Numbered from the stretch's first letter, positions 10,157 to 50,258 are shown. The stretch is DNA of 52,978 bases from Methylothermaceae bacteria B42 (GCA_001566965.1 LSNW01000036.1:1-52978); one strand, 5' to 3'. Made by a program: numbers and translations. The notes: a model not told the origin generated them from the letters alone.

Positions 10157-11008
10157 ATGAATTTGCAGCAAATTAAGTATTTCCTCGCAGTCATAGATGC
10201 TGGAACATTCTTAGCTGCATCCGAAATGGTGCATGTCAGCCAACCAACGCTTTCGGCGGGAATCAAAAAGCTAGAGGACTCACTAGGTGTGAAGCTATTT
10301 CATCGAGGTGGGAGAAAGGCTATCTTGACCCGAGAGGGCGAAATCTTTCATTCGCAGGCTCGTGACGCATATGCCAAGCTCATAAATGTCAAATCCCAGC
10401 TTTCCGGTGAGGTCAGTACAGTAAGAATTGGTGTGAGCAATTCCGTTCCCATGCCCAGTATCACAGAAATGATGAAGTCCTATGTCAGACTGCACCCCTC
10501 TTCAATCATTGAGATCACGGTGGGTAACAGCAACATTCTTAAAGATGAGTTGATGTTGGGGAAAATTAACTTGCTCTTTTCTGAACGTATACCTTGTGAG
10601 GCGGAATGCAAGGTATTGTTTACGGAATCTCTAGAGTTGGTAGTTTCAAAAGACAACCCTCTATCCACACTTGATGTCATCAATATACATGAAATTAACG
10701 GGTTCCGATTTGTAGATCGGCGACAATGCGACGTTTGGCACAAAGTACAATCACTTATTGAATCACGCGACATAGTATTACATAAAGTCTGTAGCGCGGA
10801 AGAAGATGAAACGGTATTGTCGCTAGTTTCATCGGATTTGGGGGTCTCAATAATGCCTCGTCGCAATACACCCTACCATGTAGCCTTCGTAAGGATTAAT
10901 GAGCTAAATGTGCTTCGCCCTATCTGCTTGTATCATGATGTGAGTGATAATCCACAAGCATCTGTTTTATTGGAGTGCGCAATGAAGTTCTGGGGACACA
11001 ATACTTAA
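10157..11008 (+). CDS. LysR-family transcriptional regulator, divergent from the SDR gene
   Basis: N-terminal wHTH (MNLQQIKYFLAVIDAGTFLAASEMVHVSQPTLSAGIKKLE) followed by a LysR substrate-binding domain. It is AT-rich like its SDR partner. The start was refined from 10124 to ATG 10157. Confidence 0.85.
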   Translation: MNLQQIKYFLAVIDAGTFLAASEMVHVSQPTLSAGIKKLEDSLGVKLFHRGGRKAILTREGEIFHSQARDAYAKLINVKSQLSGEVSTVRIGVSNSVPMPSITEMMKSYVRLHPSSIIEITVGNSNILKDELMLGKINLLFSERIPCEAECKVLFTESLELVVSKDNPLSTLDVINIHEINGFRFVDRRQCDVWHKVQSLIESRDIVLHKVCSAEEDETVLSLVSSDLGVSIMPRRNTPYHVAFVRINELNVLRPICLYHDVSDNPQASVLLECAMKFWGHNT

Positions 11009-11400
11009 CTACCCGCCTTTGGCCCAGGTTTCTTTTTCCGCAAGTCATCTCGCCCAAGCAGCTTTTCTGCCATTTGCACAAAACCAGCATCTCCCAATGG
11101 ACGCCCGGTTCGTTCGTGCCGCTCGAAATCTGGCAGATCCTTTAGCCGCATTGCTTCCAGATACCCATCCCAATCCCCGACCAAAGACAATAACGGCCCG
11201 GTTGCCACGATACCCTACCCGTCTCGACCCTTTAGATGCGCATGTACACTACTCCACGGGTAATCCCAAGCGTACCGCACCATGCCGGCCTTGACCGGGT
11301 TCAACTCAACATAAACCACCGCACTTAACAACCAGCCCTCATCCATCGGGTAGGAAGCAAATCGCCCCTGCCATAAATAACCGCGCTATTTTTCCCGAAA
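11005..11400 (-). pseudogene. Degenerate C-terminal remnant of a RAYT/IS200-like (COG1943, Y1 HUH) transposase
   Basis: The minus strand encodes ...VKAGMVRYAWDYPWSSVHAHL... (the YPWSS..AHL motif), then after an in-frame stop the ORF ...ERHERTGRPLGDAGFVQMAEKLLGRDDLRKKKPGPK. Both stretches are hallmark C-terminal segments of REP-associated tyrosine transposases. No N-terminal HUH or catalytic part is present. Confidence 0.6.
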
Positions 11401-11424: not shown

Positions 11425-14400
11425 TTAAAGAGATTCTTTAATGAACATATCGTATAGTTTCATGGTTTCCGAAGAAGGTCTGGAATGTAACTTGGCGTCA
11501 AATAGCTGACAGAGCTGGCTGTATGTTGTTTCGATTTGATCGACCTGTCCGGTTTTTTCATAACAGCGCATTAAACCCTGATAAAATGCCTCGGGCAGTT
11601 CATCGATGCTCAACGCCCTAAGGTAGATATCAATCGCCTGTTGGCATTGATCAGCAACTTCATATCCTTCAGCCAAAAGGCAAGTGGCGCGAACAAACTG
11701 ATGATGCAACCGGTCGCGCATCGACAGTATCCAATGCTCGCTATGGTTTGCCAAAAATTTTCCAGCGTACAACTCATAGGCTTTTTCCAGTTGCGTGCTA
11801 TCATCATGCATATGCCGGCATATGCGGTCAAAGCAGCTAGCATCGACCCAGCAATAGTCAGGATTCAAACCCAGTTTGCCATCACTGTACAGAATAGCCT
11901 GCTTTTCTTTTAACAATTGACGCGCCCGTTTAACTGTTGTTCGAAGGCTGTTGCACGCAGCATCACCGTCCGCGTCAGGCCATAATGCTTCCATGATCAG
12001 CGCGTCGGAGACATTTTGACTTCCGAAAGCAACCAGCGCCTTGATCAACTCCAAAGGTTTTTTTGGGGCTTTTTTGTTAAAAACCACTTCCTTATTATTG
12101 ACCACCAACCGAAAGCCGCCCAATGTATAAATTTTTACGGGGTACGGCCACAGGTCTGTTTCATATCCAGGCTCCGGCAGTAATCGGTGGCGAGCTATCA
12201 TTTCCTTTACATAGTCTTTTTCAATACCATTCTGCAAGGCTAGTGAACAAAACTTTGAAAAATCCTGATCCCGCCACCAGAACGCACTGTAAATCCTGGC
12301 GCCGCCGAATAAATCAGCCAGGGCTGCGACACAGGCTTTCTGATTGTTATTGATTAAACAGTCTTCCGCATCGACAATACGGGACAAAAATATCAGCATA
12401 TTAGAGTGTGCAGTTGATGGGTCTTGGCGAATAGAGCGGGTCAATTCCCGCGCCTGGTGATGGTCCCCTCGTTTTAATAAATAACTTGCATAACAAACAT
12501 CAACAATTTTTTCCAGCATCACGGCGCCGACCATGCTGGCCAGTTTTTTTGCCTGTCCAATGTTTTCACCGGCGGCATGAATGTCGCCAGTATGTATTTC
12601 ATACCAGGCTCTCAAAACGTGATACATCGCATCATGAAACTCGCCTCCCAAGGCTTTGGTTTCATTCGCTCGCTCAATGTAGCGCGTTGACTGCTCGGTT
12701 TTGCCATGATGCAGATTCAAATAACATAGCTGGTCATAAAGACACGATTTCCACAGATAAATCCCTGTTTTATCCGAAAGTTCAACACCCTTGCGAATAT
12801 TGCCGAGGCATTCTTCCTGTTTGAAAACCGTGGCGTAATAATTGCCCAGCATGGTATGCCAGGTAATTTTTACCAAAGGAGAAGTCTGTTGCTGATTCAT
12901 AAGGGGTTGAACGGTCTGCACCAGCATTTTTGCTTTTTCAAACTCGCCGCACCACCAGGTCAGGTGAAACAAAAGTTGACCAGCCGCCTGCACCCGGGTT
13001 TCAAAATCCTTGCCGAGCATGACAATGTTCCATACTTTTTCCCTGTATTCCGGCATTTTTTCATGCCCGGGCTGGCGCCACATCAAAGCCAGAAATACCG
13101 CATAATCCACTTGCGCCTGAATCACAGGGTCGCCCTGTTCTCGCGCCAAAAGAACAATCGAGTCCAGGTCTTCAATCCAGTGATCCAGGGTTTTTACTTC
13201 ACTCCAGGCGCTTGCATAGGCATTGACAGCGGCGCACCAACTTGCAATTTGCGCCAGCGCATCCTTTTCTTGCTTGCTGGACTGGTATGCTTTTTGAAAA
13301 TAAGCAATGGCTGCGCGAGGAGTTTTGGATGTTTCTGTGATTCCGCGCCAATAGCAGAGCCAGTGATTCCGGGTTTGCATTGGTTCTGGCAGCGAGACAA
13401 TCCAGTGACGAAGGGTATTGTGCAAGCCTTTCTCAATCATTGTGTGCGCGTTATTCTCAATCACAGCGCATAATCGCCGCCATTGCCGGGCCTGGCGAAA
13501 TAACTCGGCGGCATGATCAATATTATTTTCACGCAATAAAATCTCGGCGGCCTGTACGCGGCACGCATTCAATTTGTCCCGCCCGAAAAGCTGCTCAGCT
13601 TGCGCCAGTAAAAATTCACGGAACAGGGGGTGATAGTGAAAGCTGTCAATGGCGCCTGAGCAGTGAAAAGTAAAATAATTGCGCTGCGCCATGTCCAGCA
13701 ATATGGCTTTGGCCTGAGAGTTAGCTGTTAATTGCTTGGCGACAGGGATGTCAATCTGTTGCAAAACAGCGGTTTTTAACAGAAACGCCTTGACCGTTTC
13801 GCTGGTGTGTTGAAAGATCTCGCTGGCAAAATAGTGAAATATCTTATAGTGAGTATATTCTGTTGTCGTTAGAGGCAACGCCTTGTCAGCAGACTGTTCC
13901 AGCATCAGAATGAGACCGGCGGCCCAGCCCCGGGTTGTGTGATGCAGGGCTGCAATTTTGTTGTGATCGAAAAGTTGTTCGATGTTGCGTAACCTAATCA
14001 AGCCGCCGATCTCGTCTTCAGTAAATTCCAGCGGTTGTCCGTCAAGCCATTGCATATCCCCGGTTGTCAGCATCCGCGTCAGATTTTCCGCAGGCGAAGA
14101 TCGGCTTATTATCACAATACGGATAGTCGATGGAATTTCTCCAAGGAGAATCGGTAATAAGGGTTCAAGCGGATGGTTGCCGCCGATATCCTGAAAATTG
14201 TCAAACACCAGAACGGTGTTTTCCGGAAGCCGAGAATAAAAATCACGGATGAAATTCCGGGCGAACACAGCAATGCCGTGCTCATATTCCGGTGTCAGCC
14301 GCGGCAGCAGACCTTTTGCCGGGGCGTCTTGCTCGGCCAATAGCGCAAGATAATAAAAGAAGGAGGCCAGATCGCTGTCACCCGCATCAATCCGAAACCA

Positions 14401-14679
14401 CAGCGGCGTTATGGCTTTGGCTTGAAAATAACTTAACACCAATGCCGTTTTACCCGCCCCGGCCGCCCCCGATATCCAGGCAACCGGGTGTTCCAGCATC
14501 GCATCCATTTGTAAAAAAAGCCTTTTTCTCTCAAATACACGACTGCAATGCGGAACACTTAGCTTGGCGAATGATCGTGCTTGATACATGGTCATGAGTT
14601 CGGGTTCGATCGCTCCTGTCAAGCAAATACTATCATACGTAACCATGTAAATTCCCCCCATCTGTTCCCAATCTGTCAC
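11425..14679 (-). CDS. Large signal-transduction NTPase regulator: N-terminal P-loop (AAA_16/STAND-like) ATPase, central TPR-like helical repeats, C-terminal OmpR-type winged helix plus BTAD (a permuted SARP/AfsR-like architecture)
   Basis: 1084 aa. Walker A GAAGAGKTAL near the N-terminus with hhhhD Walker B (VLVFDNFQD). There is a long alpha-helical repeat region. The C-terminal ~250 aa read IYTLGGFRLVVNNKEVVFNKKAPKKPLELIKALVAFGSQNVSDALIMEALWPD...VKRARQLL (an OmpR/PhoB-type wHTH) followed by BTAD-like helices. Confidence 0.8.
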   Translation of the reverse strand: MTDWEQMGGIYMVTYDSICLTGAIEPELMTMYQARSFAKLSVPHCSRVFERKRLFLQMDAMLEHPVAWISGAAGAGKTALVLSYFQAKAITPLWFRIDAGDSDLASFFYYLALLAEQDAPAKGLLPRLTPEYEHGIAVFARNFIRDFYSRLPENTVLVFDNFQDIGGNHPLEPLLPILLGEIPSTIRIVIISRSSPAENLTRMLTTGDMQWLDGQPLEFTEDEIGGLIRLRNIEQLFDHNKIAALHHTTRGWAAGLILMLEQSADKALPLTTTEYTHYKIFHYFASEIFQHTSETVKAFLLKTAVLQQIDIPVAKQLTANSQAKAILLDMAQRNYFTFHCSGAIDSFHYHPLFREFLLAQAEQLFGRDKLNACRVQAAEILLRENNIDHAAELFRQARQWRRLCAVIENNAHTMIEKGLHNTLRHWIVSLPEPMQTRNHWLCYWRGITETSKTPRAAIAYFQKAYQSSKQEKDALAQIASWCAAVNAYASAWSEVKTLDHWIEDLDSIVLLAREQGDPVIQAQVDYAVFLALMWRQPGHEKMPEYREKVWNIVMLGKDFETRVQAAGQLLFHLTWWCGEFEKAKMLVQTVQPLMNQQQTSPLVKITWHTMLGNYYATVFKQEECLGNIRKGVELSDKTGIYLWKSCLYDQLCYLNLHHGKTEQSTRYIERANETKALGGEFHDAMYHVLRAWYEIHTGDIHAAGENIGQAKKLASMVGAVMLEKIVDVCYASYLLKRGDHHQARELTRSIRQDPSTAHSNMLIFLSRIVDAEDCLINNNQKACVAALADLFGGARIYSAFWWRDQDFSKFCSLALQNGIEKDYVKEMIARHRLLPEPGYETDLWPYPVKIYTLGGFRLVVNNKEVVFNKKAPKKPLELIKALVAFGSQNVSDALIMEALWPDADGDAACNSLRTTVKRARQLLKEKQAILYSDGKLGLNPDYCWVDASCFDRICRHMHDDSTQLEKAYELYAGKFLANHSEHWILSMRDRLHHQFVRATCLLAEGYEVADQCQQAIDIYLRALSIDELPEAFYQGLMRCYEKTGQVDQIETTYSQLCQLFDAKLHSRPSSETMKLYDMFIKESL

Positions 14680-14740
14680 AGATGCCTTGTTACTATTGCA
14701 GCCGAGAAATACCTTAGGATTACGTTTAGAGGTAAATATT

Positions 14741-15736
14741 ATGAAACGACAACAAAGCTATCTTAACCACTCCAACCCATACCCCAGACAGAACCGCAGG
14801 CAACCGGCCGCCACACAAACTCAGCATCAATACCGGCGCATGTGCTGTAACCTTTTTGTTGCAGTGCTTGCTGTCTCAGGGTTGATTTCCACCCAGGTCG
14901 CGCAGGCGGTTTCGTTGCCTCGGAATATTGTCAGTACCATTGAATACACTAAACTTCATTCTTCAACGACGGCAGATTTCTTTGATACAAGAGCTTTCGA
15001 TGTTAATCCTGCTCCTCATGTGACCAATCAGGCTTTAGACAATAATTCCAAGTTGGTGGGCACCAGCTACGCAGATGCTCAAGGGCAATGGGGGAACTCA
15101 GCGAATGCCCGTTTTATTGATGCTGGTATTGAAGCAACCTCTGTTTATCAGGCCACTTTTACCAAGCATAGTGATCAGGATGTCTTAACGACCAGGATTA
15201 GCAATACCTTTTTATCTTTACGGGACTTTGGTAGCTCGGTGCAGGGTGATCTGGAAGCTAGGTTTAAATTTATTGTAAACATATCCCCTCGCCCGTCATT
15301 CACATATACTCCAATCATTGGTGAGGTTTCGCTACGGGGTCGAGCAGGCCGAGGTTTTTCATTATCTGGTGATACTGATCTTTTTACCGGCATCTATACG
15401 GAAGAGGTAAGTCCAGTTGGGACGCCTTTAGCAGCCGTTTATGATTTGGATACTTTTTCAGTCGAGATTCCTCTGTATCAACAATTCACTGAAATCGCTG
15501 TCGGTGATGAATTTATAGTTGAATGGGTTGCAATTTCTTCCGCAGTTGCACAAGGTGGAGAAACATTAGCTAAAACTCAGTTCTGGGACCCCATTGGTGG
15601 TACGCCAGGGCCATTTTTTAGTGTTGGCCCGAGTGTATCAACGGTGCCCGTACCCGCTGCAATCTGGCTATTTGGCTCAGGGTTTCTCGGTCTTGTCGGA
15701 ATAAGCGCCAGGAAGCGCAGACCGATTCAAGACTAA
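14741..15736 (+). CDS. PEP-CTERM sorting-domain protein (predicted exosortase substrate), secreted
   Basis: Signal peptide (…NLFVAVLAVSGLISTQVAQA). The C-terminus VPVPAAIWLFGSGFLGLVGISARKRRPIQD has a VPxP motif, a TM helix and an Arg-rich tail, which is the PEP-CTERM architecture. The start was set at ATG 14741 with a GAGGT RBS. Confidence 0.78.
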   Translation: MKRQQSYLNHSNPYPRQNRRQPAATQTQHQYRRMCCNLFVAVLAVSGLISTQVAQAVSLPRNIVSTIEYTKLHSSTTADFFDTRAFDVNPAPHVTNQALDNNSKLVGTSYADAQGQWGNSANARFIDAGIEATSVYQATFTKHSDQDVLTTRISNTFLSLRDFGSSVQGDLEARFKFIVNISPRPSFTYTPIIGEVSLRGRAGRGFSLSGDTDLFTGIYTEEVSPVGTPLAAVYDLDTFSVEIPLYQQFTEIAVGDEFIVEWVAISSAVAQGGETLAKTQFWDPIGGTPGPFFSVGPSVSTVPVPAAIWLFGSGFLGLVGISARKRRPIQD

Positions 15737-15900: not shown

Positions 15901-17132
15901 ATGACCAAAGCCCGTTCTTCTCGCGTCTCTCTGCAGGACACCCCCAGGTACCACTGCGTCAGCCATTGTGTCCGTTGCGCCTTTTTGTGTGGCGAGGATA
16001 GCTATGCGGGGGAAAGTTTCGAGCACCGGCGGGACTGGATTGCCGAGCGGATCAAGCAACTGGCGGGAATCTTCGCCATCGACGTGGCCGCCTATGCGGT
16101 GATGAGCAATCACTGGTGGTGCGCATCGACCGGGAACGGGCCTTGGGCTGGTCGGTGGAGGAGGTGCTTCAGCGTTGGACGATGCTGTTTTCCGGCCCGC
16201 CTTTAGTGACGAAATATCTCTCAGAGGCCCGTGGTGAAATGAGCAAGGCGGAAATCGCCAAAGTGGAGGAGCTGGCGTCGATCTATCGGGGGCGGTTGTA
16301 CGATCTTTCCTGGTTAATGCGCACTTTGAACGAGTACATCGCACGCCGCGCCAATGCCGAGGATGGCGTGAAAGGCCGGTTCTGGGAAGGGCGTTTCAAG
16401 AGCCAGGCGTTGTTGGATGAGCCTACCCTGCTGGCGGCGATGGCCTATGTAGATTTCAACTTGGTGCGGGCCGGGATTGCCGAAACCCCGGAAACTTCGG
16501 ACTACACCTCGATTCAAGAACGGGCCGGCGGATTGCCGGAAAAGATGGAAACCGCAGAACCACCCCCGCCTGAAGTCCAATCCCGAGAGCCTAATGTTCC
16601 CTTGCCGGAAGCCTAGGTCCAAAGCCTGCCGCAGGCCCCCTTGATGCCCTTCGACGCCACCGGTCGCACCCCCTTTACGATTCCCTTCGCCTTCGAGGAT
16701 TATCTGGAACTGGTGGACTGGACTGGCCGGGCCATTCGGGATGACAAGCACAGGCATATTCCTGCTCATCAGCCCAAAATCCTGGCTCGATTGGGCATCG
16801 ATGCTGAAGTCTTCATCACCCACGCGGATCGGCTGTTGCAGCGCTTCGGCACGGCAGTGGGGGCGCCTTCGTCGCTGGTCAGCCTATGCGCCAGTCGGCA
16901 GAGCCGTTATCTGCGCGGTATTCGGACAGAGACGTTTGTTCCAGAATCAGCGGGCTGCTTGATGCCGGATGTGGTTTCGGCGGCACGTTGGCCGGCCTAT
17001 ATGAAAATAGAAATTGACAGGCTCAACATCGATCAGCGCCAATTGGCGCATGCCAGAATGCCGGAAAGCGTGTGTTCTCATGGCGGCTATGGACAAAAGG
17101 GACATTACTGCTTTGGAATAACACGATTGTAA
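15901..17132 (+). pseudogene. Frameshifted Y1 (HUH) IS200/RAYT-superfamily transposase gene
   Basis: Three consecutive ORFs in different frames (15901-16206, 16116-16616, 16641-17132). The N-terminus reads MTKARSSRVSLQDTPRYHCVSHCVRCAFLCGED...AYAVMSNHWW, where the expected HUH motif (SNHYHLVL) is broken by a frameshift. Downstream reads GRFWEGRFKSQALLDEPTLLAAMAYVDFNLVRAGIAETPETSDYTSIQ, the Y1 catalytic-Tyr region. At least two frameshifts are present. Confidence 0.7.
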
Positions 17133-49580: not shown

Positions 49581-50258
49581 TTAATTACGGGGTTTTTTCC
49601 TCCATGACATTCCCGCAATGAGTCCGTAGGCGGGCAGCGCCATCACAAGGGCGGGCGGCAAGGGAACCGCCTGGGGGATGACAAAGTTATCCAATGAGGT
49701 TTCTTCGCAGCAACTTTTGGAAATAGGGTCAAACGGCTCGTTCCAGGTGATTTTGGTGATGGGGGTATCGCTAAGCACACCAATGAAAACCGGCGTTTGT
49801 TCCGTGGCCCCGGGAGGCACCGGGAATGGCCCCAAGGAATCCCCGTCTTTGAATTCTATGCTCAGCAGCCCGGGATTGGCGTCCGGGTCAAATGCCTCTA
49901 TATCAAAGCCAACGGCTTTGTGGGGCAGGGAAAAATGGATGTCATAGGCGGAAAAGGCCCCGTTATCTCCCCGTCCCTGGTTATCAATGGAGAATAGCTC
50001 TTTATCGCCGGTGCCTTGGAAAATTTCCAGGCGGTCCAGGTTGGTGGTGACAGAAATCCCCGGCAAGAATTCCACGCCCATCATATCGGTCCCGTTGGGA
50101 AAACTCTCGAAATCCTGGGTGTCTGTCGGTCCGCCCAAATCCGCCAGGAAAGAGGCGCGGTTTCCGTAAACGGTATAGGTTGCGGCATTTACCAAGGCAG
50201 GTAAGGTCATGGCGATCCCAAGACACGTAATCACTAAAAGATTTGCTGGTTTCTTCAT
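49581..50258 (-). CDS. PEP-CTERM-like sorting-domain protein, secreted
   Basis: Signal peptide MKKPANLLVITCLGIAMTLPALVNA. C-terminus AVPLPPALVMALPAYGLIAGMSWRKKPRN has a VPxP-like motif, a TM helix and a basic tail. Confidence 0.7.
   Translation of the reverse strand: MKKPANLLVITCLGIAMTLPALVNAATYTVYGNRASFLADLGGPTDTQDFESFPNGTDMMGVEFLPGISVTTNLDRLEIFQGTGDKELFSIDNQGRGDNGAFSAYDIHFSLPHKAVGFDIEAFDPDANPGLLSIEFKDGDSLGPFPVPPGATEQTPVFIGVLSDTPITKITWNEPFDPISKSCCEETSLDNFVIPQAVPLPPALVMALPAYGLIAGMSWRKKPRN

Follow-up and report, generated by a model that had tools for sequence, protein, structure and literature searches.

MalT of Escherichia coli and the LAL regulators carry an N-terminal STAND NTPase with a winged-helix arm, a helical repeat sensor, and a C-terminal LuxR/GerE helix-turn-helix, and MalT acts at MalT boxes. 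AfsR and the other "large SARPs" of Streptomyces are STAND-type activators of antibiotic pathways with the order SARP module (winged helix-turn-helix, wHTH, plus bacterial transcriptional activator domain, BTAD), NB-ARC NTPase, TPR. SARPs bind direct repeats that overlap the -35 region, with two DNA-binding domains on one helix face (PMC11301090), and the AfsR paper gives a repeat-to--10 gap of 8 nt at the afsS promoter. PEP-CTERM (exosortase substrate) genes such as pepA are controlled by the two-component system PrsK/PrsR with sigma-54 (RpoN) in Aquincola and Zoogloea (PMC9850573). GSU1771 of Geobacter sulfurreducens, a global SARP-type regulator with an N-terminal receiver domain, affects biofilm and surface proteins, and its mutant shows altered expression of several PEP-motif genes (PMC10599522).

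The locus studied here lies in a 52,978-nt stretch of DNA from Methylothermaceae bacteria B42 (the window) and consists of a large regulator gene and, divergent to it, a gene for a probable PEP-CTERM protein. Like MalT, the regulator has a MalT-clade STAND NTPase with a winged-helix arm, a helical sensor related to MalT domain III, and an N-terminal ATPase with C-terminal DNA-binding output, and it is presumably an oligomeric activator driven by ligand and ATP; unlike MalT, it ends in an OmpR-type winged helix and BTAD, and where MalT uses MalT boxes, its predicted site consists of direct repeats in tandem at the -35 region. It shares with AfsR the pairing of a STAND-type activator with a SARP module and a candidate site whose direct repeats extend into the -35 region of a promoter without a good -35, but its order is NTPase, sensor, SARP, its hosts are Gram-negative, and its proposed target is a surface protein. 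While the proposed dedication of a regulator to a PEP-CTERM gene recalls PrsK/PrsR, the pair has a sigma-70-type extended -10, no histidine kinase or response regulator nearby, and no sigma-54 GG-N10-GC on the gene strand in any intact orthologous spacer. GSU1771 is likewise a SARP-type regulator in a Gram-negative bacterium, but it lacks a STAND NTPase and helical sensor and is not a member of a paired cassette.

Domain architecture of the regulator

The regulator gene and its domains are as follows.

11425..14595, minus strand: regulator coding sequence (ORF list; probable start ATG 14595; 1056 aa plus stop)
13630..14565, minus strand: MalT-type STAND NTPase module with winged-helix arm, aa ~11-322 (profile against PDB, NCBIfam, AlphaFold)
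12187..13629, minus strand: alpha-solenoid (TPR/SUPR-like) sensor region, aa ~323-803 (model, PDB profile, Pfam in homologues)
11845..12150, minus strand: OmpR-type winged helix-turn-helix, aa ~816-917 (Trans_reg_C, AfsR/EmbR profile, Foldseek)
11428..11844, minus strand: BTAD, aa ~918-1056 (Pfam, AfsR/EmbR profile)

Both open reading frames of the original prediction are real and lie where it had placed them. The longest regulator ORF extends to GTG 14679 (11425-14679, minus strand). Since the N-termini of orthologues, MTMYQARSFAKLS (M(T)MYQARSFAKLS) or MKQARS, match at ATG 14595, and a longer extension would overlie a conserved promoter block, translation probably starts at ATG 14595 (or 14589) rather than at the GTG. 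The regulator is thus ~1056 aa long instead of the 1084 aa first proposed, and the divergent starts are separated by 145 bp instead of ~60 bp.

When a family profile was compared with PDB sequences, the NTPase matched MalT (8bob, E 1e-58, positions 11-410). The NCBIfam MalT model aligned to aa 39-470 of the long ORF (E 7e-40), with the MalT equivalog at 137 bits, far under its cutoff of 537; Pfam gave a weak AAA_16/NACHT match at aa 50-207, and PF25873 (WHD_MalT) is present in the listed homologues. The Walker motifs are intact (Walker A GAAGAGKT at 14446-14469; Walker B VLVFD), and G46, G48, K49, T50, D132, S164, and R165, including the SR sensor motif, are invariant across the family. In the AlphaFold model, aa 323-803 form helical repeats throughout; this region matched MalT domain III (1hz4, E 2.7e-8) and the PH0952 TPR sensor (6mfv) in PDB profile and Foldseek searches, and many homologues carry PF17874 (TPR_MalT).

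At the C-terminus, the OmpR-type wHTH is followed immediately by the BTAD, as in the SARP family, although this module (aa 816-1056 of 1056) lies at the extreme C-terminus and not at the N-terminal position seen in small and large SARPs. HMM searches located this output as the original prediction had anticipated, rather than a MalT/LuxR-type ending: Pfam BTAD scored 46 bits, above cutoff, at aa 961-1076 of the long ORF, Trans_reg_C scored 18 bits, below cutoff, at aa 873-926, and GerE (LuxR-type HTH) had no Pfam or NCBIfam match in the regulator. The family profile matched the SARP modules of AfsR (8k60/8hvr, residues 27-264, E 1e-15) and EmbR (residues 16-257). The AlphaFold model (pLDDT 82.5) has the same domain order as the profile searches, and Foldseek recovered MalT with it, plus the AfsR SARP module at TM 0.63. 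Pfam, NCBIfam, PDB profile, AlphaFold, and Foldseek thus agree on the proposed order of NTPase, helical sensor, wHTH, and BTAD. The label "permuted AfsR", however, does not fit, since the NTPase and sensor are MalT-clade and AfsR chains match through the SARP module alone.

These data show that a STAND NTPase and a helical sensor, both of MalT type, are joined in one protein to a SARP output module at the C-terminus; judged from its sequence, the regulator has the chassis of MalT with a SARP module in place of the LuxR helix-turn-helix. Nor is this architecture rare: the family is large, with full-length homologues numbering more than 1200, and is already annotated by pipelines, with NCBI and JGI names of BTAD, MalT, or SARP regulators. 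Our literature search found no experimental study of the family, nor any paper about regulators of this kind acting on PEP-CTERM genes, in keeping with their earlier description as essentially unstudied.

The divergent PEP-CTERM protein gene

The partner gene carries the following features.

14741..15736, plus strand: PEP-CTERM protein coding sequence, 331 aa plus stop (translation, Pfam/NCBIfam tail, AlphaFold)
14728..14732, plus strand: Shine-Dalgarno AGAGG, 8 nt before ATG 14741
14741-14908, plus strand: long n-region and putative signal peptide, aa 1-56
14909-15589, plus strand: all-beta domain of unknown function, aa 57-283
15641-15718, plus strand: VPVP, TM helix, and RKRR tail, aa 301-326

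The product matches a hypothetical protein from Methylothermaceae bacterium B42 at 100% identity, and its AlphaFold core has a pLDDT of 80-95. Near its N-terminus, a conserved hydrophobic stretch, CCNLFVAVLAVSGLISTQVAQA, followed by VS, was read by eye. The tail, VPVPAAIWLFGSGFLGLVGISARKRR, consists of VPVP, AAIWLFGSGFLGLVGIS, and ARKRR, and its scores all fall just under cutoff (Pfam 18.1 versus 20.7; TIGR03370 20.3 versus 25.35; TIGR02595 14.4 versus 16). Two orthologues, with a VPEP tail, carry a precomputed PF07589 match, and remote homologues exceed the tail cutoff; a search with a tail profile returned thousands of proteins with a similar tail at their very C-terminus. Where orthologous spacers are intact, alignment showed that a purine-rich A/GGGG-type block and the ATG are kept. 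No exosortase gene was found among the window ORFs scanned, and a second ORF with such a tail, of VPLP type (49581-50258), is a hint of a sorting system.

Conservation and genomic context of the gene pair

The divergent pairing recurs in seven distinct contexts (the window, L004, L005-7, L011, L008-9, L092, and L090-91) with unrelated flanks, as expected of the divergent module originally proposed, whose orthologues are adjacent elsewhere. Across these contexts the regulators share 56-82% identity and the partners 44-58%. The pair is restricted to a small clade whose members are MAG and metagenome contigs, some of which bear the label Gammaproteobacteria or hydrothermal vent. It is not family-wide: a PEP-CTERM-like neighbour occurs in only one or two of 78 more distant regulator-family loci. 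Neighbours across the wider family are diverse, with no common gene, and 11-bp-phased repeats are not enriched upstream of its members, so nothing generalises to that family. On these comparisons, the link of the regulator to PEP-CTERM cargo is clade-specific.

In the window, lipA is separated from the regulator by an SDR gene and a LysR gene and is therefore not adjacent. The pair is flanked by two putative relics.

11005..11346, minus strand: fragmentary REP-associated tyrosine (HUH/Y1) transposase-like relic, just downstream of the regulator
15901..17132, plus strand: frameshifted remnant of a longer gene, REP-associated tyrosine transposase-like, within DNA rich in G+C (0.60)

The flanking transposase relics of the original prediction are weakly supported: NCBIfam NF047646 matched over 11215-11346 (E 8e-5), where NPVKAG..YPWSS motifs were seen by eye, and over 16116-16616 (E 1e-5), within three overlapping ORFs in different frames, but Pfam matched neither relic.

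A conserved element between the two genes

The 145-bp spacer contains a conserved 40-bp block (14657-14696), which in an alignment of seven loci is better conserved than any other part of the spacer, the rest having diverged. It includes two predicted elements.

14660..14679, plus strand: predicted operator ATCTGTTCCCAATCTGTCAC (spacer alignment, pattern count, presence at orthologous loci)
14688..14696, plus strand: extended -10-like element TGTTACTAT, towards the PEP-CTERM gene (read from sequence, aligned loci)

The predicted operator consists of direct repeats of ATCTGTY at 14660-14666 and 14671-14677, 11 bp start to start, a pattern found once in the window versus 0.08 expected. The 20-mer adjoins all the orthologous regulator genes seen, lies 45-90 nt ahead of the regulator start in every context, and is kept in loci without the partner (L001, L002, L003, L010, and L093/94). 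Extra copies precede a gene for a signal-peptide protein in L003 (two substitutions) and one for a Calx-beta lipoprotein in L010 (one substitution), where ~0.003 such matches would be expected by chance in the DNA searched. The motif is absent beside a remote partner homologue that neighbours a LuxR-type regulator. Regulators with this motif have a common recognition helix, SLRTT[VI][KM]R[AV]R (SLRTTVKRARQLL in this regulator), particular to their clade versus AFxTTLxRLR in the rest of the family, which could reflect mere common descent.

Towards the PEP-CTERM gene, a conserved -10-like element (TACTAT) lies 13 bp from the downstream heptamer, compared with 8 nt at the afsS promoter, a difference that speaks against the AfsR-like reading. 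No -35 hexamer is present, the downstream repeat standing in its position, and a consensus scan of the spacer returned no full sigma-70 promoter. The spacer thus carries a conserved operator-like element, and the repeat pair, with SARP-like geometry upstream of a -10-like element, looks like the binding site of the regulator.

Alternative explanations for the repeats and the pairing

The repeats could instead be a Pho box through which PhoB activates the PEP-CTERM gene and possibly the regulator gene as well, with the regulator acting elsewhere or as a modulator. Their core lies 11 nt upstream of the -10, a compatible position, as the Pho box of E. coli pho promoters lies ~10 bp upstream of the -10. 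The Pho box consensus is two CTGTCAT units 11 nt apart, start to start, and the repeats show this unit structure (PMC4415409); the core CTGTTCCCAATCTGTCAC (CTGTYCC N4 CTGTCAC) agrees with CTGTCAT-N4-CTGTCAT at 10 of 14 conserved positions. PhoB could therefore bind, instead of or together with the regulator, and in Streptomyces the sites of the SARP AfsR and PhoP do overlap (PMC4415409). A strict Pho box search (three or fewer mismatches), however, did not find the site, the first half-site keeps its non-Pho form, CTGT(T/C)CC, in all orthologues, and no pst or pho genes occur at any of the loci. Moreover, the motif accompanies the regulator gene even without the PEP-CTERM gene and is missing upstream of the remote partner homologue with a different regulator. 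We consider the Pho box quite unlikely and weaker than a regulator operator.

If the regulator does bind the repeats, it might mainly repress or autoregulate, leaving the PEP-CTERM gene as no activated target or under another factor. The fixed distance from operator to regulator start, even where no divergent gene exists, is consistent with this, as is L093/94, where the repeat is followed by neither a recognisable -10 nor a gene and can therefore serve the regulator gene only. Yet BTAD/SARP modules are activators in all studied cases (PMC11301090), the repeat and extended -10 are co-conserved wherever the PEP-CTERM gene is intact, and in L090/91, where an ISL3 fragment separates the pair, the 40-bp block remains with the PEP-CTERM gene and not the regulator, making a mainly repressive or autoregulatory role unlikely on balance. 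That the two genes are merely cargo of a mobile or recombination-prone segment, with no regulatory link, seems very unlikely. Many of the contexts do have insertion sequence or transposase remnants next to the pair (the window relics, IS66 in L005, DDE_3 in L002, ISL3 in L090, a transposase fragment in L010), and flanks differ in all of them. Against this, orientation, spacing, and promoter block are kept down to ~45% partner identity, the partner gene decays where the pair is broken (in L003 AAG replaces its ATG and only 42 codons remain), and the motif also marks other secreted-protein genes nearby.

Proposed mechanism

With modest confidence, we favor a regulator that, switched by ligand and ATP, activates a small regulon of genes for secreted proteins. 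If MalT and AfsR are a guide, ligand at the helical sensor together with ATP would release autoinhibition and drive oligomerisation. Two or more winged-helix domains would then bind the ATCTGTY repeats head to tail, 11 bp apart (14660-14677), the downstream repeat filling the place of the missing -35 ahead of the extended -10, and BTAD plus wHTH would recruit sigma-70 RNA polymerase to switch on the divergent PEP-CTERM gene. Its product would be exported by Sec, processed by an exosortase encoded elsewhere in the genome, and finally come to lie on the cell surface or within the matrix.

Because the conserved repeat pair between the genes resembles a binding site, it is plausible that they form a regulator-target module, if a fairly ordinary one. 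The regulator likely also controls itself, as the same predicted operator precedes its own start. Finally, the extra operator copies near other secreted-protein genes suggest that it may govern a small regulon of surface proteins.

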